The notes under the pieces: generated by a model
What the model saw: only the letters and a program-made list of their open reading frames with translations
Told to the model about the DNA's origin: nothing
Database searches by the model: none
In this document: in pieces, positions 8,169 to 55,414 of the stretch
Layout of the letters: the number at the start of each line of letters is the position of its first letter
Position numbering within the stretch: position 1 is the stretch's first letter
NCBI GenBank assembly: GCA_964016885.1
Contig: OZ024744.1
Span: forward strand, 133,300,001-133,364,000
Reading direction: 5' to 3'
DNA from: Eledone cirrhosa
Lineage: Eukaryota
Length of the DNA: 64,000 nucleotides
Program-made: the position numbers and the translations under genes

Positions 8169-8344
8169 TTAGGGCTTAAGTTAAGTTGGGGCTAAGTTAA
8201 GTTGGGGTTAAGTCAAGTTGGAAGTTGTGGTTGAGTGAAGTTGGGGTTAAGTTAAGTTGGGGTTGAGTGAAGTTGGGGTTAAGTTAAGTTGGGGTTGAGT
8301 TACGTTGGGGTTGAGTTACGTTGGGGTTAAGTTAAGTTGGGGTT
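8169..8344 (-). repeat. Inverted island 1 (176 bp)
   Basis: Starts TTAGGGCTTAAG, contains AAGTCAAGTTGGAAGTTGTGG, has GAGTTACG twice, and returns at GGGGTT|AACTCC. Confidence 0.96.
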
Positions 8345-11300
8345 AACTCCAACTTAACTTAACCCCAACTTAACTTAACCCCAACTTAACTTAACCCCAA
8401 CATAACTTAACCCCAACTTAAATTAACCCCAACTTAACTTAAACTCAACTTAACTAACCAACTTAACTTAACCCCAATTTAACTTAACCCCAACTTAACT
8501 TAACCTCAACTTAACTTAACCCCAACTTAACTTAACCCCAACTTAAATTAACCCCAACTTAACTTAACCCCAACTTAACTTAACCCCGACTTAACTTAAC
8601 CCCAACTTAATTAACCCCAACTTAACTTAGCCCCAACTTAACTTAGCCCCAACTTAACTTAGCCCCAACTTAACTTAACCCCAACTTAACATAACCGCAC
8701 CTTAACTTAACCTCAACTTAACTTAACTGCAACTTAACTTAACCCCAACTTAACTTAACCCCAACTTAACTCAACACCAACTTAACTCAACCCCAACTTA
8801 ACTCAACCCCAATTTAACTCAACCCCAACTTAACTCAACCCCAACTTAACTTAACCCCAACTTAACTGAACCCTAACTTAACTTAACCCCGACTTAAATT
8901 AAGCCCAACTTAACTTAACCCCAACTTAACTCAGCCCCAACTTAACTTAGCCTTAACTTAACTTAACCCCAACTTAACTTAACCCCAACTTAATTAACCC
9001 CAACTTAAATTAACCCCAACTTAACTTAACACCAACTTAACGTAACCCCATCTTAAATAAACCCCAACTTAAATTAACCCCAACTTAACTTAACCCCAAC
9101 TTAACTTAACCCCAACTTAACTCAGCCCCAACTTAACTTAGCCCCAACTTAACTTAACCCCAACTTAACTTAACCCCAACTTAACTTAACCCCAACTTAA
9201 CTTATCCCCAACTTAACTTAACCCCAACTTAACTTAAACCCAACTTAACTTAACCCCAACTTAAACTATCCCCAACTTAACTTATCCCCAACTTAACTTA
9301 ACCCCAACTTAACTTAACCCCAACTTAACTTAACCCCAACTTAATTTAACCCCAACTTAACTTAACCTCAACTTAACTTAACCCCAACTTAACTTAACCC
9401 CAACTTAACTTAACCCCAACTTAAATTAGCCCCAACTTAACTTAACCCCAACTTAAATTAACCCCAACTTAACTTAACCCCAACTTAACTTAACCCCGAC
9501 TTAAATTAACCCCAACTTAACTTAACCCCAACTTAACTTAACCACAAATTAACTTAACCACAAATTAACTTAACCCCAACTTAACTTAACCCCAACTTAA
9601 CTTAACCCCAACTTAACTTAACCCCAACTTAACTTAACCCCAACTTAACTTAAACCTAACTTAACTTAACCCCAACTTAACCCCAACTTAACTTGACCCC
9701 AACTTAACTTAACCCCAACTTAACTCAACCCCAACTTAACTTAACCCCAACTTCACTCAGCCCCAACTTAACTCAGCCCCAACTTAACTTAGCCCCAACT
9801 TAACTTAACACCAACTTAACTTAACCCCAACTTAACTTAAACCTAACTTAACTTAACCCCAACTTAACCCCAACTTAACTTGACCCCAACTTAACTTAAC
9901 CCCAACTTAACTCAACCCCAACTTAACTTAACCCCAACTTCACTCAGCCCCAACTTAACTCAGCCCCAACTTAACTTAGCCCCAACTTAACTTAACACCA
10001 ACTTAACTTAACCCCAACTTAACTTAACCCCAACTTAACTTAACCCCAACTTAACTCAACCCCAACTTAACTTAACCCCAACTTAACTCAGCCCCAACTT
10101 AACTCAGCCCCAACTTAACTTAGCCCCAACTTAACTTAACACCAACTTAACTTAACCCCAACTTAACTTAACCCCAACTTAACTTAACCCCAACTTAACT
10201 TATCCCCAACTTAACTGAACCCCAACTTAACTTAACCCCAACTTAATATAACCCCAACTTAACTTAACCCCAACTTAACTCAACCCCAACTTAAATTAAC
10301 CCCAACTTAACTTAACCCCAACTTAACTTAACCCCAACTTAATTAACCCCAACTTAAATTAACCCCAACTTAACTTAACACCAACTTAACGTAACCCCAA
10401 CTTAACTTAACCCCAACTTAACTTAAACCTAACTTAACTTAATCCCAACTTAACCCCAACTTAACTTGACCCCAACTTAACTTAACCCCAACTTAACTCA
10501 ACCCCAACTTAACTTAACCCCAACTTAACTCAGCCCCAACTTAACTCAGCCCCAACTTAACTTAGCCCCAACTTAACTTAACACCAACTTAACTTAACCC
10601 CAACTTAACTTAACCCCAACTTAACTTAACCCCAACTTAACTTATCCCCAACTTAACTGAACCCCAACTTAACTGAACCCCAACTTAAATTAACCCCAAC
10701 TTAACTTAACCCCAACTTAACTTAACCCCAACTTAACTCAACACCAACTTAACTCAACCCCAACTTAACTCAACCCCAATTTAACTCAACCCCAACTTAA
10801 CTCAACCCCAACTTAACTTAACCCCAACTTAACTGAACCCTAACTTAACTTAACCCCGACTTAACTTAACCCCGACTTAACTTAACCCCAACTTAACTTA
10901 ACCCCAACTTAACTTAACCCCAACTTAACTTAACCCCAACTTAATTTAACCCCATCTTAACCCCAACTTAACTTAACCCCAACTTAACTGAACCCCAACT
11001 TAAATTAACCCCAACTTAAATAAACCCCAACTTAACTTAACCCCAACTTAACTTAACCCCAACTTAACTTAACCCCAACTTAACTCAGCCCCAACTTAAC
11101 TTAGCCCCAACTTAACTTAACCCCAACTTAACTTAACCCCAACTTAACTTAACCCCAACTTAACTTAAACCCAACTTAACTTAACCCCAACTTAAATTAT
11201 CCCCAACTTAACTTATCCCCAACTTAACTTAACCCCAACTTAACTTAACCCCAACTTAACTTAACCCCAACTTAATTTAACCCCAACTTAACTTAACCTC

Positions 11301-14300
11301 AACTTAACTTAACCCCAACTTAACTTAACCCCATCTTAACTTAACCCCAACTTAACTTAACCCCAACTTAACTTAACCCCAACTTAAATTAACCCCAACT
11401 TAACTTAACCCCAACTTAACTTAACCCCGACTTAACTTAACCCCAACTTCACTTAACCCCAACTTAACTCAGCCCCAACTTAACTTAGCCCCAACTTAAC
11501 TTAACCCCAACTTAACTTAACCCCAACTTAACTTAACCCCAACTTAACTTAACACCAACTTAACGTAACCCCAACTTAATTTAACCCCAACTTAAATTAA
11601 CCTCAACTTAACTTAACCCCAACTTAACTTAACCCCATCTTAACTTAACCCCAACTTAACTTAACCCCAACTTAACTTAAACCCAACTTAACTTAACCCC
11701 AACTTAACTTAACCCCAACTTAACTTAACCCCATCTTAACTTAACCCCAACTTAACTTAACCCCAACTTAACTTAACCCCAACTTAAATTAACCCCAACT
11801 TAACTTAACCCCAACTTAACTTAACCCCGACTTAACTTAACCCCAACTTAACTTAATCCCAACTTAACTTAACCCCAACTTAACTTAACCACAAATTAAC
11901 TTAACCCCAACTTAACTTAACCCCAACTTAACTTAACCCCAACTTAACTTAACCCCAACTTAACTTAACCCCAACTTAACTTAAACCTAACTTAACTTAA
12001 CCCCAACTTAACCCCAACTTAACTTGACCCCAACTTAACTTAACCCCAACTTAACTCAACCCCAACTTAACTTAACCCCAACTTAACTCAGCCCCAACTT
12101 AACTCAGCCCCAACTTAACTTAGCCACAACTTAACTTAACACCAACTTAACTTAACCCCAACTTAACTTAACCCCAACTTAACTTAACCCCAACTTAACT
12201 TATCCCCAACTTAACTGAACCCCAACTTAACTTAACCCCAACTCAATATAACCCCAACTTAACTTAACCCCAACTTAACTCAACCCCAACTTAAATTAAC
12301 CCCAACTTAACTTATCCCCAACTTAACTTAACCCCAACTTAATTAACCCCAACTTAAATTAACCCCAACTTAACTTAACACCAACTTAACGTAACCCCAA
12401 CTTAAATAAACCCCAACTTAAATGAACCCCAACTTAACTTAACCCCAACTTAACTTAACCCCAACTTAACTCAGCCCCAACTTAACTTAGCCCCAACTTA
12501 ACTTAACCCCAACTTAACTTAACCCCAACTTAACTTAACCCCAACTTAACTTAAACCTAACTTAACTTAACCCCAACTTAACTTGACCCCAACTTAACTT
12601 AACCTCAACTTAACTTAACCCCAACTTAACTTAACCCCATCTTAACTTAACCCCAACTTAACTTAACCCCAACTTAACTTAACCCCAACTTAAATTAACC
12701 CCAACTTAACTTAACCCCAACTTAACTTAACCCCGACTTAACTTAACCCCAACTTAACTTAACCCCAACTTAACTTAACCCCAACTTAACTTAACCACAA
12801 ATTAACTTAACCCCAACTTAACTTAACCCCAACTTAACTTAACCCCAACTTAACTTAACCCCAACTTAACTTAACCCCAACTTAACTTAAACCTAACCTA
12901 ACTTAACCCCAACTTAACCCCAACTTAACTTGACCCCAACTTAACTTAACCCCAACTTAACTCAACCCCAACTTAACTTAACCCCAACTTAACTCAGCCC
13001 CAACTTAACTCAGCCCCAACTTAACTTAGCCACAACTTAACTTAACACCAACTTAACTTAACCCCAACTTAACTTAACCCCAACTTAACTTAACCCCAAC
13101 TTAACTTATCCCCAACTTAACTGAACCCCAACTTAACTTAACCCCAACTTAATATAACCCCAACTTAACTTAACCCCAACTTAACTCAACCCCAACTTAA
13201 ATTAACCCCAACTTAACTTATCCCCAACTTAACTTAACCCCAACTTAATTAACCCCAACTTAAATTAACCCCAACTTAACTTAACACCAACTTAACGTAA
13301 CCCCAACTTAACTTAACCCCAACTTAACTTAAACCTAACTTAACTTAACCCCAACTTAACCCCAACTTAACTTGACCCCAACTTAACTTAACCCCAACTT
13401 AACTCAACCCCAACTTAACTTAACCCCAACTTAACTCAGCCCCAACTTAACTCAGCCCCAACTTAACTTAGCCCCAACTTAACTTAACAACAACTTAACT
13501 TAACCCCAACTTAACTTATCCCCAACTTAACTGAACCCCAACTTAACTGAACCCCAACTTAAATTAACCCCAACTTAACTTAACCCCAACTTAACTTAAC
13601 CCCAACTTAACTCAACACCAACTTAACTCAACCCCAACTTAACTCAACCCCAATTTAACTCAACCCCAACTTAACTCAACTCCAACTTAACTTAACCCCA
13701 ACTTAACTGAACCCTAACTTAACTTAACCCCGACTTAACTTAACCCCGACTTAACTTAACCCCAACTTAACTTAACCCCAACTTAACTTAACCCCAACTT
13801 AACTTAACCCCAACTTAATTTAACCCCATCTTAACCCCAACTTAACTTAACCCCAACTTAACTGAACCCCAACTTAACTTAACCCCAACTTAAATAAACC
13901 CCAACTTAACTTAACCCCAACTTAACTTAACCCCAACTTAACTTAACCCCAACTTAACTCAGCCCCAACTTAACTTAGCCCCAACTTAACTTAACCCCAA
14001 CTTAACTTAACCCCAACTTAACTTAACCCCAACTTAACTTAACCCCAACTTAACTTAACCCCAACTTAACTTAAACCCAACTTAACTTAACCCCAACTTA
14101 AATTATCCCCAACTTAACTTATCCCCAACTTAACTTAACCCCAACTTAACTTAATCCCAACTTAACTTAACCCCAACTTAATTTAACCCCAACTTAACTT
14201 AACCTCAACTTAACTTAACCCCAACTTAACTTAACCCCATCTTAACTTAACCCCAACTTAACTTAACCCCAACTTAACTTAACCCCAACTTAAATTAACC

Positions 14301-15409
14301 CCAACTTAACTTAACCCCAACTTAACTTAACCCCGACTTAACTTAACCCCAACTTAACTTAACCCCAACTTAACTTAACCCCAACTTAAGCCCAACTTAA
14401 CTTGACCCCAACTTAACTTAACCCCAACTTAACTCAACCCCAACTTAACTTAACCCCAACTTAACTCAGCCCCAACTTAACTCAGCCCCAACTTAACTTA
14501 GCCCCAACTTAACTTAACACCAACTTAACTTAACCCCACCTTAACTTAACCCCAACTTAACTTAACCCCAACTTAACTTATCCCCAACTTAACTGAACCC
14601 CAACTTAACTTAACCCCAACTTAATATAACCCCAACTTAACTTAACCCCAACTTAACTCAACCCCAACTTAAATTAACCCCAACTTAACTTAACCCCAAC
14701 TTAACTTAACCCCAACTTAATTAACCCCAACTTAAATTAACCCCAACTTAACTTAACACCAACTTAACGTAACCCCAACTTAATTTAACCCCAACTTAAA
14801 TTAACCCCAACTTAACTTGCCCCCAACTTAACTTACCCCCAACGTAACTTAACCCCAACTTAATTTAACCCCAACTTAATTTAACCCCAACTTAACTTAA
14901 CCCCAAATTAACTCAACCCCAACTTAACTCAACCCCAACTTAACTTAACCCCAACTTAACTTAACCCCAACTTAACTTAACCACAAATTAACTTAGCCCC
15001 AACTTAAATTAACCCCAACTTAACTCAACCACAACTTAACTTAACCCCGACCTAACTTAACCCCAACTTAACTTAACCCCAACTTAATTTAACCCCAACT
15101 TCACTCAACCCCAACTTAACTCAACCCCAACTTAACCCCAACTTAACTTAACCCCAACTTAAATTAACCACAAAGTTAACTTAACCCCAATTTAAATTAA
15201 CCCCAACTTAACATAACCACCACTTAATTAACCCCAACTTAACTCAACCCCAACTTAACTTAACCCTAACTTAACTTAACCCCAACTTAACCGCAACTTA
15301 ACTTAACCCCAACTTAACTTACCCCCAACTTAACTTACCCCCAACTTAACTGAACCCCAACTTAAGTTAAGCCTAACTTAACTTAACGCCAACTTAACTT
15401 AACCCCGAC

Positions 15410-15585
15410 TTAGGGCTTAAGTTAAGTTGGGGCTAAGTTAAGTTGGGGTTAAGTCAAGTTGGAAGTTGTGGTTGAGTGAAGTTGGGGTTAAGTTAAGTTG
15501 GGGTTGAGTGAAGTTGGGGTTAAGTTAAGTTGGGGTTGAGTTACGTTGGGGTTGAGTGAAGTTGGGGTTAAGTTAAGTTGGGGTT
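15410..15585 (-). repeat. Inverted island 2 (176 bp)
   Basis: Same entry junction and internal markers. Returns at GGGGTT|AACCCC. Confidence 0.96.
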
Positions 15586-18500
15586 AACCCCAACTTAACT
15601 TAACTCCAACTTAACTTAACCCCAACTTAACTTAACCCCAACTTAACTTAACCCCAACATAACTTAACCCCAACTTAAATTAACCCCAACTTAACTTAAA
15701 CTCAACTTAACTAACCAACTTAACTTAACCCCAACTTAACTTAACCCCAACTTAACTTAACCCCAACTTAACTTAACCCCAACTTAACTTAACTCCAACT
15801 TAAATTAACCCCAACTTAACTTAACCCCAACTTAACTTAACCCCGACTTAACTTAACCCCAACTTAATTAACCCCAACTTAACTTAGCCCCAACTTAACT
15901 TAGCCCCAACTTAACTTAGCCCCAACTTAACTTAACCCCAACTTAACATAACCGCACCTTAACTTAACCTCAACTTAACTTAACTGCAACTTAACTTAAC
16001 CCCAACTTAACTTAACCCCAACTTAACTCAACACCAACTTAACTCAACCCCAACTTAACTCAACCCCAATTTAACTCAACCCCAACTTAACTCAACCCCA
16101 ACTTAACTTAACCCCAACTTAACTGAACCCTAACTTAACTTAACCCCGACTTAAATTAAGCCCAACTTAACTTAACCCCAACTTAACTCAGCCCCAACTT
16201 AACTTAGCCCTAACTTAACTTAACCCCAACTTAACTTAACCCCAACTTAATTAACCCCAACTTAAATTAACCCCAACTTAACTTAACACCAACTTAACGT
16301 AACCCCATCTTAAATAAACCCCAACTTAAATTAACCCCAACTTAACTTAACCCCAACTTAACTTAACCCCAACTTAACTCAGCCCCAACTTAACTTAGCC
16401 CCAACTTAACTTAACCCCAACTTAACTTAACCCCAACTTAACTTAACCCCAACTTAACTTATCCCCAACTTAACTTAACCCCAACTTAACTTAAACCCAA
16501 CTTAACTTAACCCCAACTTAAACTATCCCCAACTTAACTTATCCCCAACTTAACTTAATCCCAACTTAACTTAACCCCAACTTAACTTAACCCCAACTTA
16601 ATTTAACCCCAACTTAACTTAACCTCAACTTAACTTAACCCCAACTTAACTTAACCCCAACTTAACTTAACCCCAACTTAAATTAGCCCCAACTTAACTT
16701 AACCCCAACTTAAATTAACCCCAACTTAACTTAACCCCAACTTAACTTAACCCCGACTTAAATTAACCCCAACTTAACTTAACCCCAACTTAACTTAACC
16801 ACAAATTGACTTAACCACAAATTAACTTAACCCCAACTTAACTTAACCCCAACTTAACTTAACCCCAACTTAACTTAACCCCAACTTAACTTAACCCCAA
16901 CTTAACTTAAACCTAACTTAACTTAACCCCAACTTAACCCCAACTTAACTTGACCCCAACTTAACTTAACCCCAACTTAACTCAACCCCAACTTAACTTA
17001 ACCCCAACTTCACTCAGCCCCAACTTAACTCAGCCCCAACTTAACTTAGCCCCAACTTAACTTAACACCAACTTAACTTAACCCCAACTTAACTTAAACC
17101 TAACTTAACTTAACCCCAACTTAACCCCAACTTAACTTGACCCCAACTTAACTTAACCCCAACTTAACTCAACCCCAACTTAACTTAACCCCAACTTCAC
17201 TCAGCCCCAACTTAACTCAGCCCCAACTTAACTTAGCCCCAACTTAACTTAACACCAACTTAACTTAACCCCAACTTAACTTAACCCCAACTTAACTTAA
17301 CCCCAACTTAACTCAACCCCAACTTAACTTAACCCCAACTTAACTCAGCCCCAACTTAACTCAGCCCCAACTTAACTTAGCCCCAACTTAACTTAACACC
17401 AACTTAACTTAACCCCAACTTAACTTAACCCCAACTTAACTTAACCCCAACTTAACTTATCCCCAACTTAACTGAACCCCAACTTAACTTAACCCCAACT
17501 TAATATAACCCCAACTTAACTTAACCCCAACTTAACTCAACCCCAACTTAAATTAACCCCAACTTAACTTAACCCCAACTTAACTTAACCCCAACTTAAT
17601 TAACCCCAACTTAAATTAACCCCAACTTAACTTAACACCAACTTAACGTAACCCCAACTTAACTTAACCCCAACTTAACTTAAACCTAACTTAACTTAAC
17701 CCCAACTTAACCCCAACTTAACTTGACCCCAACTTAACTTAACCCCAACTTAACTCAAGCCCAACTTAACTTAACCCCAACTTAACTCAGCCCCAACTTA
17801 ACTCAGCCCCAACTTAACTTAGCCCCAACTTAACTTAACACCAACTTAACTTAACCCCAACTTAACTTAACCCCAACTTAACTTAACCCCAACTTAACTT
17901 ATCCCCAACTTAACTGAACCCCAACTTAACTGAACCCCAACTTAAATTAACCCCAACTTAACTTAACCCCAACTTAACTTAACCCCAACTTAACTCAATA
18001 CCAACTTAACTCAACCTCAACTTAACTCAACCCCAATTTAACTCAACCCCAACTTAACTCAACCCCAACTTAACTTAACCCCAACTTAACTGAACCCTAA
18101 CTTAACTTAACCCCGACTTAACTTAACCCCGACTTAACTTAACCCCAACTTAACTTAACCCCAACTTAACTTAACCCCAACTTAACTTAACCCCAACTTA
18201 ATTTAACCCCATCTTAACCCCAACTTAACTTAACCCCAACTTAACTGAACCCCAACTTAAATAAACCCCAACTTAACTTAACCCCAACTTAACTTAACCC
18301 CAACTTAACTTAACCCCAACTTAACTCAGCCCCAACTTAACTTAGCCCCAACTTAACTTAACCCCAACTTAACTTAACCCCAACTTAACTTAACCCCAAC
18401 TTAACTTAACCCCAACTTAACTTAACCCCAACTTAACTTAAACCCAACTTAACTTAACCCCAACTTAAATTATCCCCAACTTAACTTATCCCCAACTTAA

Positions 18501-19489
18501 CTTAACCCCAACTTAACTTAACCCCAACTTAACTTAACCCCAACTTAATTTAACCCCAACTTAACTTAACCTCAACTTAACTTAACCCCAACTTAACTTA
18601 ACCCCATCTTAACTTAACCCCAACTTAACTTAACCCCAACTTAACTTAACCCCAACTTAAATTAACCCCAACTTAACTTAACCCCAACTTAACTTAACCC
18701 CGACTTAACTTAACCCCAACTTAACTTAACCCCAACTTAACTTAACCCCAACTTAACCCCAGCTTAACTTGACCCCAACTTAACTTAACCCCAACTTAAC
18801 TCAACCCCAACTTAACTTAACCCCAACTTAACTCAGCCCCAACTTAACTCAGCCCCAACTTAACTTAGCCCCAACTTAACTTAACACCAACTTAACTTAA
18901 CCCCACCTTAACTTAACCCCAACTTAACTTAACCCCAACTTAACTTATCCCCAACTTAACTGAACCCCAACTTAACTTAACCCCAACTTAATATAACCCC
19001 AACTTAACTTAACCCCAACTTAACTCAACCCCAACTTAAATTAACCCCAACTTAACTTAACCCCAACTTAACTTAACCCCAACTTAATTAACCCCAACTT
19101 AAATTAACCCCAACTTAACTTAACACCAACTTAACGTAACCCCAACTTAATTTAACCCCAACTTAAATTAACCCCAACTTAACTTGCCCCCAACTTAACT
19201 TACCCCCAACGTAACTTAACCCCAACTTAATTTAACCCCAACTTAATTTAACCCCAACTTAACTTAACCCCAAATTAACTCAACCCCAACTTAACTCAAC
19301 CCCAACTTAACTTAACCCCAACTTAACTTAACCCCAACTTAACTTAACCACAAATTAACTTAGCCCCAACTTAAATTAACCCCAACTTAACTCAACCACA
19401 ACTTAACTTAACCCCGACCTAACTTAACCCCAACTTAACTTAACCCCAACTTAACTTAACCCCAACTTAACTTAACCCCAACTTAAATT

Positions 19490-37733: not shown

Positions 37734-37909
37734 TTAGGGCTTAAGTTAAGTTGGGGCTAAGTTAAGTTGGGGTTAAGTCAAGTTGGAAGTTGTGGTTGAG
37801 TGAAGTTGGGGTTAAGTTAAGTTGGGGTTGAGTGAAGTTGGGGTTAAGTTAAGTTGGGGTTGAGTTACGTTGGGGTTGAGTGAAGTTGGGGTTAAGTTAA
37901 GTTGGGGTT
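37734..37909 (-). repeat. Inverted island 4 (176 bp)
   Basis: Same junctions and markers as island 2. Confidence 0.96.
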
Positions 37910-42116: not shown

Positions 42117-42292
42117 TTAGGGCTTAAGTTAAGTTGGGGCTAAGTTAAGTTGGGGTTAAGTCAAGTTGGAAGTTGTGGTTGAGTGAAGTTGGGGTTAAGT
42201 TAAGTTGGGGTTGAGTGAAGTTGGGGTTAAGTTAAGTTGGGGTTGAGTTACGTTGGGGTTGAGTGAAGTTGGGGTTAAGTTAAGTTGGGGTT
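42117..42292 (-). repeat. Inverted island 5 (176 bp)
   Basis: Same junctions and markers as island 2. Confidence 0.96.
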
Positions 42293-45200
42293 AACCCCAA
42301 CTTAACTTAACCCCAACTTAACTTAACCCCAACTTAACTTAACCCCAACTTAACTTAACCCCAACATAACTTAACCCCAACTTAAATTAACCCCAACTTA
42401 ACTTAAACTCAACTTAACTAACCAACTTAACTTAACCCCAACTTAACTTAACCCCAACTTAACTTAACCCCAACTTAACTTAACCCCAACTTAACTTAAC
42501 CCCAACTTAAATTAACCCCAACTTAACTTAACCCCAACTTAACTTAACCCCGACTTAACTTAACCCCAACTTAACTTAACCCCAACTTAACTTAGCCCCA
42601 ACTTAACTTAGCCCCAACTTAACTTAGCCCCAACTTAACTTAACCCCAACTTAACATAACCGCACCTTAACTTAACCTCAACTTAACTTAACTGCAACTT
42701 AACTTAACCCCAACTTAACTTAACCCCAACTTAACTCAACACCAACTTAACTCAACCCCAACTTAACTCAACCCCAATTTAACTCAACCCCAACTTAACT
42801 CAACCCCAACTTAACTTAACCCCAACTTAACTGAACCCTAACTTAACTTAACCCCGACTTAAATTAAGCCCAACTTAACTTAACCCCAACTTAACTCAGC
42901 CCCAACTTAACTTAGCCCTAACTTAACTTAACCCCAACTTAACTTAACCCCAACTTAATTAACCCCAACTTAAATTAACCCCAACTTAACTTAACACCAA
43001 CTTAACGTAACCCCATCTTAAATAAACCCCAACTTAACTTAACCCCAACTTAACTTAACCACAAATTGACTTAACCACAAATTAACTTAACCCCAACTTA
43101 ACTTAACCCCAACTTAACTTAACCCCAACTTAACTTAACCCCAACTTAACTTAACCCCAACTTAACTTAAACCTAACTTAACTTAACCCCAACTTAACCC
43201 CAACTTAACTTGACCCCAACTTAACTTAACCCCAACTTAACTCAACCCCAACTTAACTTAACCCCAACTTCACTCAGCCCCAACTTAACTCAGCCCCAAC
43301 TTAACTTAGCCCCAACTTAACTTAACACCAACTTAACTTAACCCCAACTTAACTTAAACCTAACTTAACTTAACCCCAACTTAACCCCAACTTAACTTGA
43401 CCCCAACTTAACTTAACCCCAACTTAACTCAACCCCAACTTAACTTAACCCCAACTTCACTCAGCCCCAACTTAACTCAGCCCCAACTTAACTTAGCCCC
43501 AACTTAACTTAACACCAACTTAACTTAATCCCAACTTAACTTAACCCCAACTTAACTTAACCCCAACTTAACTCAACCCCAACTTAACTTAACCCCAACT
43601 TAACTCAGCCCCAACTTAACTCAGCCCCAACTTAACTTAGCCCCAACTTAACTTAACACCAACTTAACTTAACCCCAACTTAACTTAACCCCAACTTAAC
43701 TTAACCCCAACTTAACTTATCCCCAACTTAACTGAACCCCAACTTAACTTAACCCCAACTTAATATAACCCCAACTTAACTTAACCCCAACTTAACTCAA
43801 CCCCAACTTAAATTAACCCCAACTTAACTTAACCCCAACTTAACTTAACCCCAACTTAATTAACCCCAACTTAAATTAACCCCAACTTAACTTAACACCA
43901 ACTTAACGTAACCCCAACTTAACTTAACCCCAACTTAACTTAAACCTAACTTAACTTAACCCCAACTTAACCCCAACTTAACTTGACCCCAACTTAACTT
44001 AACCCCAACTTAACTCAACCCCAACTTAACTTAACCCCAACTTAACTCAGCCCCAACTTAACTCAGCCCCAACTTAACTTAGCCCCAACTTAACTTAACA
44101 CCAACTTAACTTAACCCCAACTTAACTTAACCCCAACTTAACTTAACCCCAACTTAACTTATCCCCAACTTAACTGAACCCCAACTTAACTGAACCCCAA
44201 CTTAAATTAACCCCAACTTAACTTAACCCCAACTTAACTTAACCCCAACTTAACTCAACACCAACTTAACTCAACCTCAACTTAACTCAACCCCAATTTA
44301 ACTCAACCCCAACTTAACTCAACCCCAACTTAACTTAACCCCAACTTAACTGAACCCTAACTTAACTTAACCCCGACTTAACTTAACCCCGACTTAACTT
44401 AACCCCAACTTAACTTAACCCCAACTTAACTTAACCCCAACTTAACTTAACCCCAACTTAATTTAACCCCATCTTAACCCCAACTTAACTTAACCCCAAC
44501 TTAACTGAACCCCAACTTAAATAAACCCCAACTTAACTTAACCCCAACTTAACTTAACCCCAACTTAACTTAACCCCAACTTAACTCAGCCCCAACTTAA
44601 CTTAGCCCCAACTTAACTTAACCCCAACTTAACTTAACCCCAACTTAACTTAACCCCAACTTAACTTAACCCCAACTTAACTTAACCCCAACTTAACTTA
44701 AACCCAACTTAACTTAACCCCAACTTAAATTATCCCCAACTTAACTTATCCCCAACTTAACTTAACCCCAACTTAACTTAACCCCAACTTAACTTAACCC
44801 CAACTTAATTTAACCCCAACTTAACTTAACCTCAACTTAACTTAACCCCAACTTAACTTAACCCCATCTTAACTTAACCCCAACTTAACTTAACCCCAAC
44901 TTAACTTAACCCCAACTTAAATTAACCCCAACTTAACTTAACCCCAACTTAACTTAACCCCGACTTAACTTAACCCCAACTTAACTTAACCCCAACTTAA
45001 CTTAACCCCAACTTAACCCCAGCTTAACTTGACCCCAACTTAACTTAACCCCAACTTAACTCAACCCCAACTTAACTTAACCCCAACTTAACTCAGCCCC
45101 AACTTAACTCAGCCCCAACTTAACTTAGCCCCAACTTAACTTAACACCAACTTAACTTAACCCCACCTTAACTTAACCCCAACTTAACTTAACCCCAACT

Positions 45201-46052
45201 TAACTTATCCCCAACTTAACTGAACCCCAACTTAACTTAACCCCAACTTAATATAACCCCAACTTAACTTAACCCCAACTTAACTCAACCCCAACTTAAA
45301 TTAACCCCAACTTAACTTAACCCCAACTTAACTTAACCCCAACTTAATTAACCCCAACTTAAATTAACCCCAACTTAACTTAACACCAACTTAACGTAAC
45401 CCCAACTTAATTTAACCCCAACTTAAATTAACCCCAACTTAACTTGCCCCCAACTTAACTTACCCCCAACGTAACTTAACCCCAACTTAATTTAACCCCA
45501 ACTTAATTTAACCCCAACTTAACTTAACCCCAAATTAACTCAACCCCAACTTAACTCAACCCCAACTTAACTTAACCCCAACTTAACTTAACCCCAACTT
45601 AACTTAACCACAAATTAACTTAGCCCCAACTTAAATTAACCCCAACTTAACTCAACCACAACTTAACTTAACCCCGACCTAACTTAACCCCAACTTAACT
45701 TAACCCCAACTTAACTTAACCCCAACTTCACTCAACCCCAACTTAACTCAACCCCAACTTAACCCCAACTTAACTTAACCCCAACTTAAATTAACCACAA
45801 AGTTAACTTAACCCCAATTTAAATTAACCCCAACTTAACTTAACCCCAACTTAACATAACCACCACTTAATTAACCCCAACTTAACTCAACCCCAACTTA
45901 ACTTAACCCTAACTTAACTTAACCCCAACTTAACCGCAACTTAACTTAACCCCAACTTAACTTACCCCCAACTTAACTTACCCCCAACTTAACTAAACCC
46001 CAACTTAAGTTAAGCCTAACTTAACTTAACGCCAACTTAACTTAACCCCGAC

Positions 46053-46228
46053 TTAGGGCTTAAGTTAAGTTGGGGCTAAGTTAAGTTGGGGTTAAGTCAA
46101 GTTGGAAGTTGTGGTTGAGTGAAGTTGGGGTTAAGTTAAGTTGGGGTTGAGTGAAGTTGGGGTTAAGTTAAGTTGGGGTTGAGTTACGTTGGGGTTGAGT
46201 GAAGTTGGGGTTAAGTTAAGTTGGGGTT
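46053..46228 (-). repeat. Inverted island 6 (176 bp)
   Basis: Same junctions and markers as island 2. Confidence 0.96.
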
Positions 46229-49200
46229 AACCCCAACTTAACTTAACCCCAACTTAACTTAACCCCAACTTAACTTAACCCCAACTTAACTTAACCCCAA
46301 CATAACTTAACCCCAACTTAAATTAACCCCAACTTAACTTAAACTCAACTTAACTAACCAACTTAACTTAACCCCAACTTAACTTAACCCCAACTTAACT
46401 TAACCCCAACTTAACTTAACCCCAACTTAACTTAACCCCAACTTAAATTAACCCCAACTTAACTTAACCCCAACTTAACTTAACCCCGACTTAACTTAAC
46501 CCCAACTTAACTTAACCCCAACTTAACTTAGCCCCAACTTAACTTAGCCCCAACTTAACTTAGCCCCAACTTAACTTAACCCCAACTTAACATAACCGCA
46601 CCTTAACTTAACCTCAACTTAACTTAACTGCAACTTAACTTAACCCCAACTTAACTTAACCCCAACTTAACTCAACACCAACTTAACTCAACCCCAACTT
46701 AACTCAACCCCAATTTAACTCAACCCCAACTTAACTCAACCCCAACTTAACTTAACCCCAACTTAACTGAACCCTAACTTAACTTAACCCCGACTTAAAT
46801 TAAGCCCAACTTAACTTAACCCCAACTTAACTCAGCCCCAACTTAACTTAGCCCTAACTTAACTTAACCCCAACTTAACTTAACCCCAACTTAATTAACC
46901 CCAACTTAAATTAACCCCAACTTAACTTAACACCAACTTAACGTAACCCCATCTTAAATAAACCCCAACTTAAATTAACCCCAACTTAACTTAACCCCAA
47001 CTTAACTTAACCCCAACTTAACTCAGCCCCAACTTAACTTAGCCCCAACTTAACTTAACCCCAACTTAACTTAACCCCAACTTAACTTAACCCCAACTTA
47101 ACTTATCCCCAACTTAACTTAACCCCAACTTAACTTAAACCCAACTTAACTTAACCCCAACTTAAACTATCCCCAACTTAACTTATCCCCAACTTAACTT
47201 AACCCCAACTTAACTTAACCCCAACTTAATTTAACCCCAACTTAATTTAACCCCAACTTAACTTAACCTCAACTTAACTTAACCCCAACTTAACTTAACC
47301 CCAACTTAACTTAACCCCAACTTAAATTAGCCCCAACTTAACTTAACCCCAACTTAAATTAACCCCAACTTAACTTAACCCCAACTTAACTTAACCCCGA
47401 CTTAAATTAACCCCAACTTAACTTAACCCCAACTTAACTTAACCCCAACTTAACTTAACCACAAATTAACTTAACCCCAACTTAACTTAACCCCAACTTA
47501 ACTTAACCCCAACTTAACTTAACCCCAACTTAACTTAAACCTAACTTAACTTAACCCCAACTTAACCCCAACTTAACTTGACCCCAACTTAACTTAACCC
47601 CAACTTAACTCAACCCCAACTTAACTTAACCCCAACTTCACTCAGCCCCAACTTAACTCAGCCCCAACTTAACTTAGCCCCAACTTAACTTAACACCAAC
47701 TTAACTTAACCCCAACTTAACTTAACCCCAACTTAACTTAACCCCAACTTAACTCAACCCCAACTTAACTTAACCCCAACTTAACTCAGCCCCAACTTAA
47801 CTCAGCCCCAACTTAACTTAGCCCCAACTTAACTTAACACCAACTTAACTTAACCCCAACTTAACTTAACCCCAACTTAACTTAACCCCAACTTAACTTA
47901 TCCCCAACTTAACTGAACCCCAACTTAACTTAACCCCAACTTAATATAACCCCAACTTAACTTAACCCCAACTTAACTCAACCCCAACTTAAATTAACCC
48001 CAACTTAACTTAACCCCAACTTAACTTAACCCCAACTTAATTAACCCCAACTTAAATTAACCCCAACTTAACTTAACACCAACTTAACGTAACCCCAACT
48101 TAACTTAACCCCAACTTAACTTAAACCTAACTTAACTTAACCCCAACTTAACCCCAACTTAACTTGACCCCAACTTAACTTAACCCCAACTTAACTCAAC
48201 CCCAACTTAACTTAACCCCAACTTAACTCAGCCCCAACTTAACTCAGCCCCAACTTAACTTAGCCCCAACTTAACTTAACACCAACTTAACTTAACCCCA
48301 ACTTAACTTAACCCCAACTTAACTTAACCCCAACTTAACTTATCCCCAACTTAACTGAACCCCAACTTAACTGAACCCCAACTTAAATTAACCCCAACTT
48401 AACTTAACCCCAACTTAACTTAACCCCAACTTAACTCAACACCAACTTAACTCAACCCCAACTTAACTCAACCCCAATTTAACTCAACCCCAACTTAACT
48501 CAACCCCAACTTAACTTAACCCCAACTTAACTGAACCCTAACTTAACTTAACCCCGACTTAACTTAACCCCGACTTAACTTAACCCCAACTTAACTTAAC
48601 CCCAACTTAACTTAACCCCAACTTAACTTAACCCCAACTTAATTTAACCCTATCTTAACCCCAACTTAACTTAACCCCAACTTAACTGAACCCCAACTTA
48701 AATTAACCCCAACTTAAATAAACCCCAACTTAACTTAACCCCAACTTAACTTAACCCCAACTTAACTTAACCCCAACTTAACTCAGCCCCAACTTAACTT
48801 AGCCCCAACTTAACTTAACCCCAACTTAACTTAACCCCAACTTAACTTAACCCCAACTTAACTTAACCCCAACTTAACTTAAACCCAACTTAACTTAACC
48901 CCAACTTAAATTATCCCCAACTTAACTTATCCCCAACTTAACTTAACCCCAACTTAATTTAACCCCAACTTAACTTAACCCCAACTTAATTTAACCCCAA
49001 CTTAACTTAACCTCAACTTAACTTAACCCCAACTTAACTTAACCCCATCTTAACTTAACCCCAACTTAACTTAACCCCAACTTAACTTAACCCCAACTTA
49101 ACCCCAACTTAAATTAACCCCAACTTAACTTAACCCCAACTTAACTTAACCCCAACTTAATTAACCCCAACTTAAATTAACCCCAACTTAACTTAACACC

Positions 49201-51369
49201 AACTTAACGTAACCCCAACTTAACTTAACCCCAACTTAACTTAAACCTAACTTAACTTAACCCCAACTTAACCCCAACTTAACTTGACCCCAACTTAACT
49301 TAACCCCAACTTAACTCAACCCCAACTTAACTTAACCCCAACTTAACTCAGCCCCAACTTAACTCAGCCCCAACTTAACTTAGCCCCAACTTAACTTAAC
49401 ACCAACTTAACTTAACCCCAACTTAACTTAACCCCAACTTAACTTAACCCCAACTTAACTTATCCCCAACTTAACTGAACCCCAACTTAACTGAACCCCA
49501 ACTTAAATTAACCCCAACTTAACTTAACCCCAACTTAACTTAACCCCAACTTAACTCAACACCAACTTAACTCAACCCCAACTTAACTCAACCCCAATTT
49601 AACTCAACCCCAACTTAACTCAACCCCAACTTAACTTAACCCCAACTTAACTGAACCCTAACTTAACTTAACCCCGACTTAACTTAACCCCGACTTAACT
49701 TAACCCCAACTTAACTTAACCCCAACTTAACTTAACCCCAACTTAACTTAACCCCAACTTAATTTAACCCCATCTTAACCCCAACTTAACTTAACCCCAA
49801 CTTAACTGAACCCCAACTTAAATTAACCCCAACTTAAATAAACCCCATCTTAACTTAACCCCAACTTAACTTAACCCCAACTTAACTTAACCCCAACTTA
49901 ACTCAGCCCCAACTTAACTTAGCCCCAACTTAACTTAACCCCAACTTAACTTAACCCCAACTTAACTTAACCCCAACTTAACTTAACCCCAACTTAACTT
50001 AACCCCAACTTAACTTAAACCCAACTCAACTTAACCCCAACTTAAATTATCCCCAACTTAACTTATCCCCAACTTAACTTAACCCCAACTTAACTTAACC
50101 CCAACTTAACTTAACCCCAACTTAATTTAACCCCAACTTAACTTAACCTCAACTTAACTTAACCCCAACTTAACTTAACCCCATCTTAACTTAACCCCAA
50201 CTTAACTTAACCCCAACTTAACTTAACCCCAACTTAAATTAACCCCAACTTAACTTAACCCCAACTTAACTTAACCCCGACTTAACTTAACCCCAACTTA
50301 ACTTAACCCCAACTTAACTTAACCCCAACTTAACCCCAGCTTAACTTGACCCCAACTTAACTTAACCCCAACTTAACTCAACCCCAACTTAACTTAACCC
50401 CAACTTAACTCAGCCCCAACTTAACTCAGCCCCAACTTAACTTAGCCCCAACTTAACTTAACACCAACTTAACTTAACCCCACCTTAACTTAACCCCAAC
50501 TTAACTTAACCCCAACTTAACTTATCCCCAACTTAACTGAACCCCAACTTAACTTAACCCCAACTTAATATAACCCCAACTTAACTTAACCCCAACTTAA
50601 CTCAACCCCAACTTAAATTAACCCCAACTTAACTTAACCCCAACTTAACTTAACCCCAACTTAATTAACCCCAACTTAAATTAACCCCAACTTAACTTAA
50701 CACCAACTTAACGTAACCCCAACTTAATTTAACCCCAACTTAAATTAACCCCAACTTAACTTGCCCCCAACTTAACTTACCCCCAACGTAACTTAACCCC
50801 AACTTAATTTAACCCCAACTTAATTTAACCCCAACTTAACTTAACCCCAAATTAACTCAACCCCAACTTAACTCAACCCCAACTTAACTTAACCCCAACT
50901 TAACTTAACCCCAACTTAACTTAACCACAAATTAAATTAGCCCCAACTTAAATTAACCCCAACTTAACTCAACCACAACTTAACTTAACCCCGACCTAAC
51001 TTAACCCCAACTTAACTTAACCCCAACTTAACTTAACCCCAACTTCACTCAACCCCAACTTAACTCAACCCCAACTTAACCCCAACTTAACTTAACCCCA
51101 ACTTAAATTAACCACAAAGTTAACTTAACCCCAATTTAAATTAACCCCAACTTAACTTAACCCCAACTTAACATAACCACCACTTAATTAAACCCAACTT
51201 AACTCAACCCCAACTTAACTTAACCCTAACTTAACTTAACCCCAACTTAACCGCAACTTAACTTAACCCCAACTTAACTTACCCCCAACTTAACTTACCC
51301 CCAACTTAACTGAACCCCAACTTAAGTTAAGCCTAACTTAACTTAACGCCAACTTAACTTAACCCCGAC

Positions 51370-51545
51370 TTAGGGCTTAAGTTAAGTTGGGGCTAAGTTA
51401 AGTTGGGGTTAAGTCAAGTTGGAAGTTGTGGTTGAGTGAAGTTGGGGTTAAGTTAAGTTGGGGTTGAGTGAAGTTGGGGTTAAGTTAAGTTGGGGTTGAG
51501 TTACGTTGGGGTTGAGTGAAGTTGGGGTTAAGTTAAGTTGGGGTT
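51370..51545 (-). repeat. Inverted island 7 (176 bp)
   Basis: Same junctions and markers as island 2. Confidence 0.96.
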
Positions 51546-54500
51546 AACCCCAACTTAACTTAACCCCAACTTAACTTAACCCCAACTTAACTTAACCCCA
51601 ACTTAACTTAACCCCAACATAACTTAACCCCAACTTAAATTAACCCCAACTTAACTTAAACTCAACTTAACTAACCAACTTAACTTAACCCCAACTTAAC
51701 TTAACCCCAACTTAACTTAACCCCAACTTAACTTAACCCCAACTTAAATTAACCCCAACTTAACTTAACCCCAACTTAACTTAACCCCGACTTAACTTAA
51801 CCCCAACTTAACTTAACCCCAACTTAACTTAGCCCCAACTTAACTTAGCCCCAACTTAACTTAGCCCCAACTTAACTTAACCCCAACTTAACATAACCGC
51901 ACCTTAACTTAACCTCAACTTAACTTAACTGCAACTTAACTTAACCCCAACTTAACTTAACCCCAACTTAACTCAACACCAACTTAACTCAACCCCAACT
52001 TAACTCAACCCCAATTTAACTCAACCCCAACTTAACTCAACCCCAACTTAACTTAACCCCAACTTAACTGAACCCTAACTTAACTTAACCCCGACTTAAA
52101 TTAAGCCCAACTTAACTTAACCCAACTTAACTCAGCCCCAACTTAACTTAGCCCTAACTTAACTTAACCCCAACTTAACTTAACCCCAACTTAATTAACC
52201 CCAACTTAAATTAACCCCAACTTAACTTAACACCAACTTAACGTAACCCCATCTTAAATAAACCCCAACTTAAATTAACCCCAACTTAACTTAACCCCAA
52301 CTTAACTTAACCCCAACTTAACTCAGCCCCAACTTAACTTAGCCCCAACATAACTTAACCCCAACTTAACTTAACCCCAACTTAACTTAACCCCAACTTA
52401 ACTTATCCCCAACTTAACTTAACCCCAACTTAACTTAAACCCAACTTAACTTAACCCCAACTTAAACTATCCCCAACTTAACTTATCCCCAACTTAACTT
52501 AACCCCAACTTAACTTAACCCCAACTTAACTTAACCCCAACTTAATTTAACCCCAACTTAACTTAACCTCAACTTAACTTAACCCCAACTTAACTTAACC
52601 CCAACTTAACTTAACCCCAACTTAAATTAGCCCCAACTTAACTTAACCCCAACTTAACTTAACCCCGACTTAAATTAACCCCAACTTAACTTAACCCCAA
52701 CTTAACTTAACCCCAACTTAACTTAACCACAAATTAACTTAACCCCAACTTAACTTAATCCCAACTTAACTTAACCCCAACTTAACTTAACCCCAACTTA
52801 ACTTAAACCTAACTTGACTTAACCCCAACTTAACCCCAACTTAACTTGACCCCAACTTAACTTAACCCCAACTTAACTCAACCCCAACTTAACTTAACCC
52901 CAACTTCACTCAGCCCCAACTTAACTCAGCCCCAACTTAACTTAGCCCCAACTTAACTTAACACCAACTTAACTTAACCCCAACTTAACTTAACCCCAAC
53001 TTAACTTAACCCCAACTTAACTCAACCCCAACTTAACTGAACCCCAACTTAACTTAACCCCAACTTAATATAACCCCAACTTAACTTAACCCCAACTTAA
53101 CTCAACCCCAACTTAAATTAACCCCAACTTAACTTAACCCCAACTTAACTTAACCCCAACTTAATTAACCCCAACTTAAATTAACCCCAACTTAACTTAA
53201 CACCAACTTAACGTAACCCCAACTTAACTTAACCCCAACTTAACTTAAACCTAACTTAACTTAACCCCAACTTAACCCCAACTTAACTTGACCCCAACTT
53301 AACTTAACCCCAACTTAACTCAACCCCAACTTAACTTAACCCCAACTTAACTCAGCCCCAACTTAACTCAGCCCCAACTTAACTTAGCCCCAACTTAACT
53401 TAACACCAACTTAACTTAACCCCAACTTAACTTAACCCCAACTTAACTTAACCCCAACTTAACTTATCCCCAACTTAACTGAACCCCAACTTAACTGAAC
53501 CCCAACTTAAATTAACCCCAACTTAACTTAACCCCAACTTAACTTAACCCCAACTTAACTCAACACCAACTTAACTCAACCCCAACTTAACTCAACCCCA
53601 ATTTAACTCAACCCCAACTTAACTCAACCCCAACTTAACTTAACCCCAACTTAACTGAACCCTAACTTAACTTAACCCCGACTTAACTTAACCCCGACTT
53701 AACTTAACCCCAACTTAACTTAACCCCAACTTAACTTAACCCCAACTTAACTTAACCCCAACTTAATTTAACCCTATCTTAACCCCAACTTAACTTAACC
53801 CCAACTTAACTGAACCCCAACTTAAATTAACCCCAACTTAAATAAACCCCAACTTAACTTAACCCCAACTTAACTTAACCCCAACTTAACTTAACCCCAA
53901 CTTAACTCAGCCCCAACTTAACTTAGCCCCAACTTAACTTAACCCCAACTTAACTTAACCCCAACTTAACTTAACCCCAACTTAACTTAACCCCAACTTA
54001 ACTTAACCCCAACTTAACTTAAACCCAACTTAACTTAACCCCAACTTAAATTATCCCCAACTTAACTTATCCCCAACTTAACTTAACCCCAACTTAACTT
54101 AACCCCAACTTAACTTAACCCCAACTTAATTTAACCCCAACTTAACTTAACCTCAACTTAACTTAACCCCAACTTAACTTAACCCCATCTTAACTTAACC
54201 CCAACTTAACTTAACCCCAACTTAACTTAACCCCAACTTAAATTAACCCCAACTTAACTTAACCCCAACTTAACTTAACCCCGACTTAACTTAACCCCAA
54301 CTTAACTTAACCCCAACTTAACTTAACCCCAACTTAATCCCAACTTAACTTGACCCCAACTTAACTTAACCCCAACTTAACTCAACCCCAACTTAACTTA
54401 ACCCCAACTTAACTCAGCCCCAACTTAACTCAGCCCCAACTTAACTTAGCCCCAACTTAACTTAACACCAACTTAACTTAACCCCACCTTAACTTAACCC

Positions 54501-55322
54501 CAACTTAACTTAACCCCAACTTAACTTATCCCCAACTTAACTGAACCCCAACTTAACTTAACCCCAACTTAATATAACCCCAACTTAACTTAACCCCAAC
54601 TTAACTCAACCCCAACTTAAATTAACCCCAACTTAACTTAACCCCAACTTAACTTAACCCCAACTTAATTAACCCCAACTTAAATTAACCCCAACTTAAC
54701 TTAACACCAACTTAACGTAACCCCAACTTAATTTAACCCCAACTTAAATTAACCCCAACTTAACTTGCCCCCAACTTAACTTACCCCCAACGTAACTTAA
54801 CCCCAACTTAATTTAACCCCAACTTAATTTAACCCCAACTTAACTTAACCCCAAATTAACTCAACCCCAACTTAACTCAACCCCAACTTAACTTAACCCC
54901 AACTTAACTTAACCCCAACTTAACTTAACCACAAATTAACTTAGCCCCAACTTAAATTAACCCCAAGTTAACTCAACCACAACTTAACTTAACCCCGACC
55001 TAACTTAACCCCAACTTAACTTAACCCCAACTTAACTTAACCCCAACTTCACTCAACCCCAACTTAACTCAACCCCAACTTAACCCCAACTTAACTTAAC
55101 CCCAACTTAAATTAACCACAAAGTTAACTTAACCCCAATTTAAATTAACCCCAACTTAACTTAACCCCAACTTAACATAACCACCACTTAATTAACCCCA
55201 ACTTAACTCAACCCCAACTTAACTTAACCCTAACTTAACTTAACCCCAACTTAACCGCAACTTAACTTAACCCCAACTTAACTTACCCCCAACTTAACTT
55301 ACCCCCAACTTAACTGAACCCC

Positions 55323-55414
55323 AACTTAAGTTAAGCCTAACTTAACTTAACGCCAACTTAACTTAACCCCGACTTAGGGCTTAAGTTAAGTTGGGGCTAA
55401 GTTAAGTTGGGGTT
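55323..55414. other. Main strand-switch (inversion) junction of the array
   Basis: AACTTAAGTTAAGCCTAA...AACGCC...CCCCGAC|TTAGGGCTTAAGTTAAGTTGGGGCTAAGTTAAGTTGGGGTT. It matches the island entries up to about 55,414, then diverges and never reverts. Confidence 0.95.

Follow-up and report, generated by a model that had tools for sequence, protein, structure and literature searches.

Published accounts catalogue inverted blocks in one-way satellite arrays as by-products of expansion or suggest a structural role for them. In Tribolium madens, the conserved amplified satellite inversion sites INV_1a and INV_1b are present in 2,044 and 3,486 copies (PMC13081366). Human HSat3B5 and beta satellite carry hundreds of strand switches, whose number rises with array length and which are interpreted as expansion by-products, and the active alpha-satellite array of chromosome 1 contains a 1.7-Mb inversion (10.1101/2021.07.12.452052, 10.64898/2026.07.22.740206). 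Outside satellites, DUP-TRP/INV-DUP rearrangements start with a first switch by inverted-repeat homology that leaves a chimaeric repeat, proceed by reverse copying, and end with a second joint formed by microhomology or end joining; in humans they use inverted low-copy repeats that measure about 0.9 kb or more and are at least 98% identical (PMC11293582). The ODIRA inverted triplication likewise gains an inverted copy by template switching, with palindromic junctions (PMC10766186), and centromeric inverted repeats are established as drivers of isochromosome or fold-back events (PMC10813616). These descriptions follow excerpts of the cited sources. Amplified satellite inversion sites and inverted copies made by homology plus microhomology are each already known. 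The locus described here keeps its history at base level, with the host site, both joints, the donor, a terminal repeat and an ungrown sibling event. In our main reading, to which we give a probability of roughly 70%, a 176-bp island is an old micro-inversion that spread to hundreds of places in the array, and the final strand switch of the window (the whole stretch of 64,000 nucleotides analysed) forms the right boundary of an inverted block that is younger, spans at least 584 kb and occupies one host site; this block likely began as a 3-kb template-switched copy joined via an island.

Inversion islands in the window and along the array

The background of the window is a 16-bp satellite, CCCCAACTTAACTTAA. 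Eight identical entry junctions, CCCCGAC/TTAGGGCTTAAG (the slash marks the switch), lie at 8,169, 15,410, 26,327, 37,734, 42,117, 46,053, 51,370 and 55,374, with 0 copies on the reverse strand within the window. In seven of the eight, plus orientation resumes 176 bp after entry at the palindrome GGGGTT/AACCCC, which reads AACTCC instead of AACCCC in island 1; the eighth copy is identical to the other islands for exactly 41 bp and has minus orientation thereafter. The eight junctions, seven 176-bp islands and divergence after 41 bp described in a previous sequence-only reading are exactly reproduced. The features are as follows, in window positions unless prefixed C28 (contig positions, also used for all other coordinates below).

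1..55373, plus: right end of the inverted block; the 16-bp satellite runs plus here (array overall minus)
8169..8344, minus: island 1, 176 bp, unlike the others at +148 and at its exit
15410..15585, minus: island 2
26327..26502, minus: island 3
37734..37909, minus: island 4
42117..42292, minus: island 5, its exit a perfect palindrome with 27-bp arms
46053..46228, minus: island 6
51370..51545, minus: island 7
52384..55414, plus: terminal direct repeat, right copy (putative founder insert)
55374..55414, minus: truncated island of 41 bp, the right joint of the inverted block; 36 of 41 bases equal the host site
55398..55414, minus: switch interval, 17 bp of exact homology common to island and host; the chimaeric join is single-copy in G000
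55415..64000, minus: host minus-orientation family, without islands for about 205 kb, resuming the unit broken at C28:131,964,580
C28:131,964,581-131,967,643: terminal direct repeat, left copy

The island copies share substitutions, the pattern predicted by descent via duplication, and match exactly for 148-2,349 bp to the right (seven islands) and 57-4,342 bp to the left. The earlier proposal that a single junction was amplified by tandem duplication is supported. A search for an un-inverted island parent in the window found island-specific words confined to the islands and best alignments that were generic, so the original micro-inversion may have been either a flip in place or an inserted copy.

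The array extends over at least 10.7 Mb close to one end of a 136.5-Mb contig, a size and position that are no more than suggestive of a functional centromeric satellite. Its main orientation is minus, out to 135.35 Mb, and the minus arm continues gap-free from the window to at least C28:133.99 Mb. A genome search with a 26-mer of the entry junction finds 106 exact copies genome-wide in G000 on both strands (59 plus, 47 minus; control pattern, 0). A 1.6-Mb sample of the array, taken on either side of the eighth switch, contains 215 members of the junction family, and 231 of the 233 plus-to-minus switches detected with a loose pattern in 1.80 Mb belong to this family. The junction allele of the window is found across 131.97-134.60 Mb, and older alleles, nearer the canonical monomer, at 130.2-132.8 and 134.7-135.0 Mb; judged by this likeness to the monomer, the window and its eighth junction probably carry the derived allele. 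Complete islands flank the eighth switch on both sides in mirror orientation, with full reverse islands to its right. Since full islands lie on both sides and older alleles extend over megabases, the island is older than the eighth switch, and the eighth junction is not ancestral. A telomere origin of the TTAGGG at the junction was rejected; it is one allele among 16, the others being mostly TTTGGG, and there are no telomere-repeat runs. Inversions also originate without these islands, as seen in an 11-bp fold-back, present 12 times, and in a distinct island of 248 bp at 129.60 Mb.

The inverted block and a smaller nested insert

The inverted part is the plus arm of the window. The block comprises C28:131,964,581-131,987,342 and C28:132,793,743-133,355,414. 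Between these two pieces the assembly places two 200-N gaps and a 0.8-Mb contig whose sequence is older; k-mer likeness (Jaccard 0.67) and the flanks suggest that the pieces belong together. In intact repeat units the sequences flanking the block are 43 bp apart: in the 1.41 Mb searched, the left 60-bp flank has five intact copies, and 43 bp after each of them comes the right flank, with 0-2 mismatches per 60. Two intact host copies, located 3 and 6 kb to the left of the block, match for 207 bp leftwards and 235 bp rightwards. Because the flanks were formerly neighbours, the block is an insertion at a single site, where about 26 bp were deleted. Its right joint is a stretch of homology inside the island (17 bp exact) and its left joint a 4-bp TTAA overlap at 131,964,580; both are single-copy (in G000 for the right joint).

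The block ends in a 3.06-kb terminal direct repeat, whose left and right copies differ by 3 substitutions and one 32-bp indel (3 mismatches in 2,549 bp in an anchored count). When all island-bearing units of the plus block, and of the minus arm as far as 133.99 Mb, are compared, each of the two copies matches the other best. The donor lies about 345 kb away. From 133.20 to 132.93 Mb the block follows the minus arm from 133.72 to 133.86 Mb in order, as a mirror image, and it contains 80-94% of the 64-mers from 19 of 22 10-kb bins sampled at 133.57-133.86 Mb (64-72% for the other three, at 133.59-133.62). The interior is neither one clean pass nor one clean circular permutation of the donor. The block contains several layers of the donor, arranged in mirror order, and growth of a small founder purely by local duplication is therefore rejected.

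A second inverted insert of 2.17 kb is nested at 132,857,065-132,859,238 between the copies of a 96-bp direct duplication; a donor unit scoring 2,135.5 of 2,154 lies at a distance of 11.8 kb. One end of the insert lies in an island (chimaera at C28:132,857,06x) and the other at a 4-bp TTAA overlap at 132,859,239, which carries a 27-bp palindrome; the insert thus has both joint types of the large block. Its junctions stand in one gap-free stretch, whereas those of the block are separated by the two assembly gaps. Homology at the island joints is short: exact matches of 17 (block) and 9 (insert) bases are embedded in stretches of about 41 bp with 88% and 95% identity. All four independent minus-to-plus junctions examined are at TTAA, where chance gives 20 of 256 for blunt joins. 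One island-located end was found in each of the four larger rearrangements observed, namely the two inverted inserts, an AT-rich satellite insertion and the right edge of the array. The idea that the island is a place of strand switching has held up, block and nested insert each being joined in an island. At the right edge of the array, at 135,347,798, an older 32-bp satellite borders on an exit palindrome and on a stub of 275 bp that is homologous to the island and ends about 7 bp before the entry junction; the stub is told from background by a 50-mer marker only, since the whole-stretch alignment score does not discriminate (232.8 versus 209-224).

Proposed history and competing explanations

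The island would have travelled as a passenger in tandem duplication. As it is the only long complement to its own strand in a one-way array, it could serve as a pairing partner for nascent ends that have broken or stalled. Such an end may have paired with an island, copied past the old junction and proceeded in reverse for 2-3 kb before rejoining at the palindromic TTAA of the monomer; the opposite direction, a U-turn at TTAA rescued once copying meets an island, would also fit. A new strand-switch junction would be beyond homologous repair, and reuse of an existing island junction would be within its reach. The 3.06-kb founder would then have been split and inflated by homology-driven copying of at least 0.25 Mb of neighbouring array, perhaps through long-tract break-induced replication or circle reintegration followed by local duplications, and the nested 2.2-kb insert may be an ungrown seed of the same kind. 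Both later inverted insertions, one of 2 kb and the other of at least 580 kb, have an end within an island, so island patches are likely ready-made U-turns that let copying errors plant inverted blocks; any claim about the rate of such seeding rests on the insertion events found (n = 2).

A one-step insertion without a small founder, by a single long break-induced replication tract with several switches or by a large extrachromosomal circle copied for more than one turn, entering via the island and ending at TTAA, would explain the contiguous flanks and the two joint types equally well. The interior resembles a circular permutation of 133.62-133.87 Mb, and rolling beyond one full turn would also yield a terminal repeat. 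We nevertheless consider it unlikely, since the tract must have stopped 3 kb past its own starting unit, out of at least 0.25 Mb (about a 1% chance by our estimate), and the 2.2-kb insert shows that founder-sized events occur. Recombination between an island and a distant ordinary monomer, flipping the intervening DNA in place, would put the break inside an island and in homologous register. Such a reciprocal inversion is highly improbable, as the far end is a new TTAA junction rather than an exit palindrome with the island remainder, adjacent flanks are not produced by an in-place flip, and the block content is duplicated in the minus arm. No reciprocal joint was found at the far end of that arm, which is the main orientation of the array out to 135.35 Mb. 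The sequence-only reading had taken the eighth junction as the ancestral arm-to-arm switch and the islands as captured copies. The identity of the first 41 bp fits that order, and a modified capture is possible for the exit junction, as suggested by the edge stub at 135,347,798. For the eighth junction the order is refuted and its probability close to nil: the sequence past +41 is the island-free family and not island, the joint is a single-copy chimaera of island and host, the allele appears derived, and full islands also lie beyond the switch.

The same reading regarded the island as a possible landmark, a hairpin, cruciform or protein-binding site kept at intervals by selection. The predicted folding of an island with its flanks (-167 kcal/mol versus 0 for plain array), the perfect 27-bp arms of 109 of 198 exit palindromes, persistence over 5 Mb and the function proposed, in the available text, for the conserved Tribolium sites (PMC13081366) would all agree with this. 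The suggestion is very unlikely to be right, because the island, with 63 copies, is about as numerous as neighbouring neutral variants (47 other markers in the repeat unit that carries it have a median of 69, and 49% of them 63 or fewer), which provides no evidence for retention by selection. Islands are irregularly spaced (1.0-31.6 kb, CV 0.77), their length drifts from about 90 to 530 bp, the 205 kb adjoining the block hold 0 islands, and the island is absent from 12 of 13 10-kb samples at 127.0-130.16 Mb, the remaining one holding an unrelated island. By copy number and irregular spacing, the spread of the island is probably a by-product of array expansion. An assembly artefact, whether over-expansion or a mis-join behind the island copies or the switch, could be suspected from the two gaps, from 1.4 kb of degenerate, probably miscalled sequence at the inner edge of the block, and from public contigs in which the unique eighth joint and the window's allele were not found. 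Its probability is extremely low, as the island copies carry nested variants, both block joints lie inside gap-free sequence, and a mis-join would not bring back the 43-bp host register over 1.39 Mb. The entry junction itself is bridged by a 68-nt read-derived contig at depths of 1,464, 1,041 and 950 in runs X3, X4 and X5 (one sample); the sole contig over this site has the older allele, and no read-derived record bridges the unique joint by 31 bases per side. Runs X6 and X7 (RAD-seq) gave partial, off-target matches only. In runs X1 and X2, from other organisms, satellite pieces make up a small share, with no entry-junction depth, which weighs neither way.

Returning to the island-seeded history, a wider extension is possible rather than probable. 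Large inverted satellite domains might be planted seeds and not flips, an amplified micro-inversion forming a field of U-turns and fragile palindromes that catches breaks and plants 2-3-kb inverted copies inflatable to megabases, which would make strand-switch junctions heritable and autocatalytic; human HSat3, beta satellite and the chromosome 1 alpha-satellite inversion could share this history. In-register flanks, an older micro-inversion joint, a palindromic-microhomology joint and a terminal direct repeat are signatures that can be searched for in complete human, beetle and plant assemblies. The locus would also offer a neutral reason for 'conserved' inversion sites, and its islands provide inverted homology by which isochromosome or fold-back events could be driven in arrays of this sort.

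Comparison with known systems

In the literature listings and passages searched, neither island-seeded insertion nor reuse of an amplified island as the seed was found; breakpoint tables accompanying the Tribolium and human centromere papers could bear on novelty. A text search with the monomer sequence gave irrelevant matches only.

As an amplified satellite inversion site of the Tribolium INV or HSat3B5 type, the locus has one strand-switch junction in many near-identical satellite copies (106 exact copies genome-wide, 215 occurrences in the 1.6 Mb sampled). In Tribolium, as far as the available text describes them, the subarrays measure kilobases to tens of kilobases and are roughly symmetric, and a function is proposed (PMC13081366). 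Here, in contrast, a junction pair brackets an island of 0.1-0.5 kb, copy number looks neutral, and two later rearrangements are traced at base level; macro-dyad symmetry of the Tribolium type is lacking, the 176-bp islands standing amid kilobases of one orientation and making up 2% of the block. The human arrays, in the passages at hand, share a megabase-scale inverted block within a homogeneous array. The large block here is an inserted inverted copy with a terminal repeat and not an in-place flip; those passages give no breakpoint mechanisms.

The inverted copy number gain and palindromic junctions recall ODIRA as excerpted (PMC10766186), but the donors are not adjacent, lying 11.8 kb and about 345 kb off, and instead of a long palindrome the new joint of the 2.2-kb insert has one of just 27 bp. 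The first junction of DUP-TRP/INV-DUP corresponds to the island/host chimaeras at window 55,398-55,414 and C28:132,857,06x, and its second to the 4-bp TTAA at 131,964,580 and 132,859,239. The substrate differs: a 176-bp island faces thousands of interchangeable monomers, and the homology between them is imperfect and extends over about 41 bp. Flanking duplications of that kind are missing, with an approximately 26-bp deletion at the block, which grew later, and only the 96-bp duplication at the insert. The locus works like DUP-TRP/INV-DUP, and we do not class it there.

Entry junctions, exit palindromes and the age of the island

The window lies in a satellite with a 16-bp monomer, CCCCAACTTAACTTAA, on contig C28 (136.5 Mb; window at 133,300,001-133,364,000). 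The sequence basis is 1.96 Mb of the satellite region including the window, continuous over 132.64-133.99 Mb, with the remainder of the array represented by 10-kb samples. The satellite was found in every sample from 127.0 to 135.35 Mb and in none from 135.38 Mb on, and its orientation is minus in all samples, except for two plus pieces (131,964,581-131,987,342 and 132,793,743-133,355,414). The plus arm of the window is therefore the inverted part, here called the block, and the minus array around it the host.

A search of the window sequence recovered all eight plus-to-minus entry junctions of the sequence-only reading at their positions; seven islands return after 176 bp, at a TTAA-centred exit palindrome, while the eighth, as had been claimed, has 41 bp in common with the others and then stays inverted. 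Substitutions among the junction copies are nested. In three sequencing runs of one sample (X3, X4, and X5) the entry junction is bridged by a 68-nt read-derived contig at a depth of 950-1,464, which has the older junction allele; in the filtered set of read-derived records, neither the allele of the window nor the unique eighth joint was seen.

The island is old. In the genome assembly the 26-mer of its entry junction occurs 59 times in plus and 47 times in minus orientation, and the exit palindrome has 658 exact copies; the 100 matches listed for each all lie on C28. Full islands in reverse orientation are present right of the final switch. The 215 entry junctions in 1.60 Mb searched represent 16 alleles of one family, and the alleles considered here lie at:

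C28:131.0-132.8 Mb, junction allele nearest the canonical monomer (…GACTTTGGGGTT)
C28:130.2-131.3 and 134.7-135.0 Mb, one-step junction allele
C28:131.97-134.60 Mb, two-step junction allele of the window

Their polarity appears to run from canonical-like through one-step to two-step. A two-state caller, below whose threshold 11-bp switches fall, identified 471 strand switches in 1.80 Mb. By a loose pattern, 231 of the 233 plus-to-minus switches fit the island's entry junction and 219 of the 238 minus-to-plus switches its exit junction; of the remaining 19, 15 are edges of an AT-rich satellite, and the others are a gap, a variant of the exit, and two new joints (131,964,580 and 132,859,239). 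The exit palindrome is a generic sequence, which may have arisen more than once. The suggestion that the island is retained as a landmark found no sign in its favor: the block holds 63 junction copies versus a median of 69 for 47 other last-unit markers, and entry junctions are 1.0 to 31.6 kb apart, with zero in the neighbouring 205 kb.

Two further features of the array lie at:

C28:135,347,798, exit palindrome at the right edge of the array
C28:129,602,063-129,602,310, separate out-and-back island of ~230-250 bp, both of its own junctions at TTAA

At the edge (C28:135,347,798-135,350,000), the exit palindrome is followed by a 275-bp plus stub homologous to the island and then by a diverged older 32/26-bp satellite in plus orientation, which may be ancestral to the 16-mer. 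The stub ends ~7 bp short of the entry position. A 50-mer taken from it has 30 matches in 1.96 Mb, namely the stub, 28 sites that an entry junction follows, and position 132,059,323, which shares its island with one of those 28 and lies upstream of it. The stub may represent the source switch or, alternatively, a third instance of island reuse; if it is the source, part of the earlier idea of a junction captured from an ancestral switch is saved. The separate island holds an inverted copy of ~36 bp from its left flank.

Among the matches listed, the leftmost exit palindromes are at 124.6 Mb, where a separate group of 23 (C28:124,599,671-124,689,356) lies to the left of the main island domain at a distance of 5.6 Mb. 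By k-mer likeness the layers of C28:130.2-135.0 Mb are roughly mirror-symmetric (e.g., 130.70 with 134.85 and 130.85 with 135.00 Mb), resembling the layered expansion of centromeric arrays.

The block as an insertion and its probable growth

The block is an insertion into the host array. In intact units, 43 bp separate the host left of 131,964,580 from the host right of window position 55,414, and every intact copy of the left flank (5/5 in 1.41 Mb searched) is continued by the right flank, at 0-2 mismatches per 60 bp. The two flank copies nearest to the block on its left show exact matches of 207 and 235 bp; near the right flank, the best copies match it over 40 bp only. For a host period of about 3 kb, the chance of a flank register within 50 bp is estimated at ~3%, a figure that disregards the coverage of the host subfamily (an estimated ~0.1 Mb out of at least 10 Mb). 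Over the final 17 bp of the 43-bp spacer, the island stub at the right joint is identical to the host (36/41 overall, alignment read by eye), so that ~26 bp of host were deleted, while the left joint is a TTAA overlap; each joint is single-copy in the assembly. The inversion could also be proposed to stem from reciprocal exchange or from a flip in place, but neither would give the contiguous host flanks or the joints observed.

The two plus pieces are separated by 0.8 Mb of older sequence with a 200-N gap on either side; this contig (C28:131,987,543-132,793,542, oldest island family), which splits the block, is probably misplaced in the scaffold. The 1.4 kb of degenerate sequence following the gap (C28:132,793,743-132,795,110) opens with a 16-periodic monomer variant and is likely the miscalled end of a read that was kept in the assembly.

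Three substitutions and one 32-bp indel separate the first 3,063 bp of the block from its last 3,031 bp. When all units with an island in the plus block and in the minus arm as far as 133.99 Mb are compared, these two ends match each other best; the unit at 133,699,822 is the best donor outside the block. Low-copy 120-mers map 133.20-132.93 Mb of the block in mirror order to 133.72-133.86 Mb, and 132.90-132.82 Mb roughly to 133.62-133.71 Mb. On the simplest reading, a 3-kb inverted seed would have been planted, then interrupted by a long stretch of the adjoining array copied through homology, and enlarged by local duplication; entry as a long tract in one step is possible. A smaller event lies within the block:

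C28:132,857,065-132,859,238, inverted segment of 2.17 kb

This insert starts within an island (9 bp exact, 39/41 matching the host, read by eye), traverses the entry junction, ends in a TTAA overlap, and is bracketed by a 96-bp direct duplication. Its donor is a unit 11.8 kb to the right (alignment score 2,135.5 of 2,154), and it would be a sibling of the block's seed without later growth. Since islands make up 2% of the block, two insertion events that both have an end in an island are unlikely by chance (~0.2% by our estimate, n = 2).

U-turns at TTAA and comparison with known systems

The canonical monomer has no 6-mer common to its two strands, and blunt minus-to-plus joins give a 4-bp overlap, namely TTAA, in 20 of 256 cases; new U-turns therefore require rare microhomology. 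All four independent minus-to-plus junctions examined (exit of the island, both new joints, left end of the separate 129.60-Mb island) are at TTAA. Within the island, ~170 bp are complementary to every monomer of the same strand, and its predicted fold with flanks is -167 kcal/mol versus 0 for the plain array. Judging from the joints and by analogy with the known DUP-TRP/INV-DUP pathway (PMC11293582), we infer that replication or repair would use this own-strand complementarity for U-turns. Break-induced replication is one proposed route of satellite change (PMC10984392).

Further small rearrangements were observed. The island-free family beside the block contains 12 amplified copies (C28:133,394,165-133,555,340) of a perfect fold-back, 11 bp long with a loop of 4 bases, a form typical of template-switch mutation. 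New return junctions shorten islands at C28:130,418,255 and 130,474,690 to 52 and 121 bp. At C28:130,419,006 and 130,478,319, island-type variants are mirrored in the flank beside the exit palindrome, and the perfect palindrome at the former reaches 57-bp arms, as hairpin-templated conversion would give. The AT-rich satellite (0.7-8.4 kb, C28:132.05-132.79 Mb; 14 copies in 132.64-132.79 Mb) always has its right border within an island, where it replaces the exit palindrome, which suggests breakage at the palindrome.

A literature search, supplements excluded, uncovered no description of inverted satellite insertions seeded by an amplified micro-inversion, and none of a small founder behind a large inverted satellite block. 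The two-joint architecture of the inserts is already known in human genomic disorders, and amplified inversion sites are present as here in a satellite of Tribolium madens (PMC13081366) and in human HSat3B5 and beta satellite (10.1101/2021.07.12.452052; 10.64898/2026.07.22.740206).
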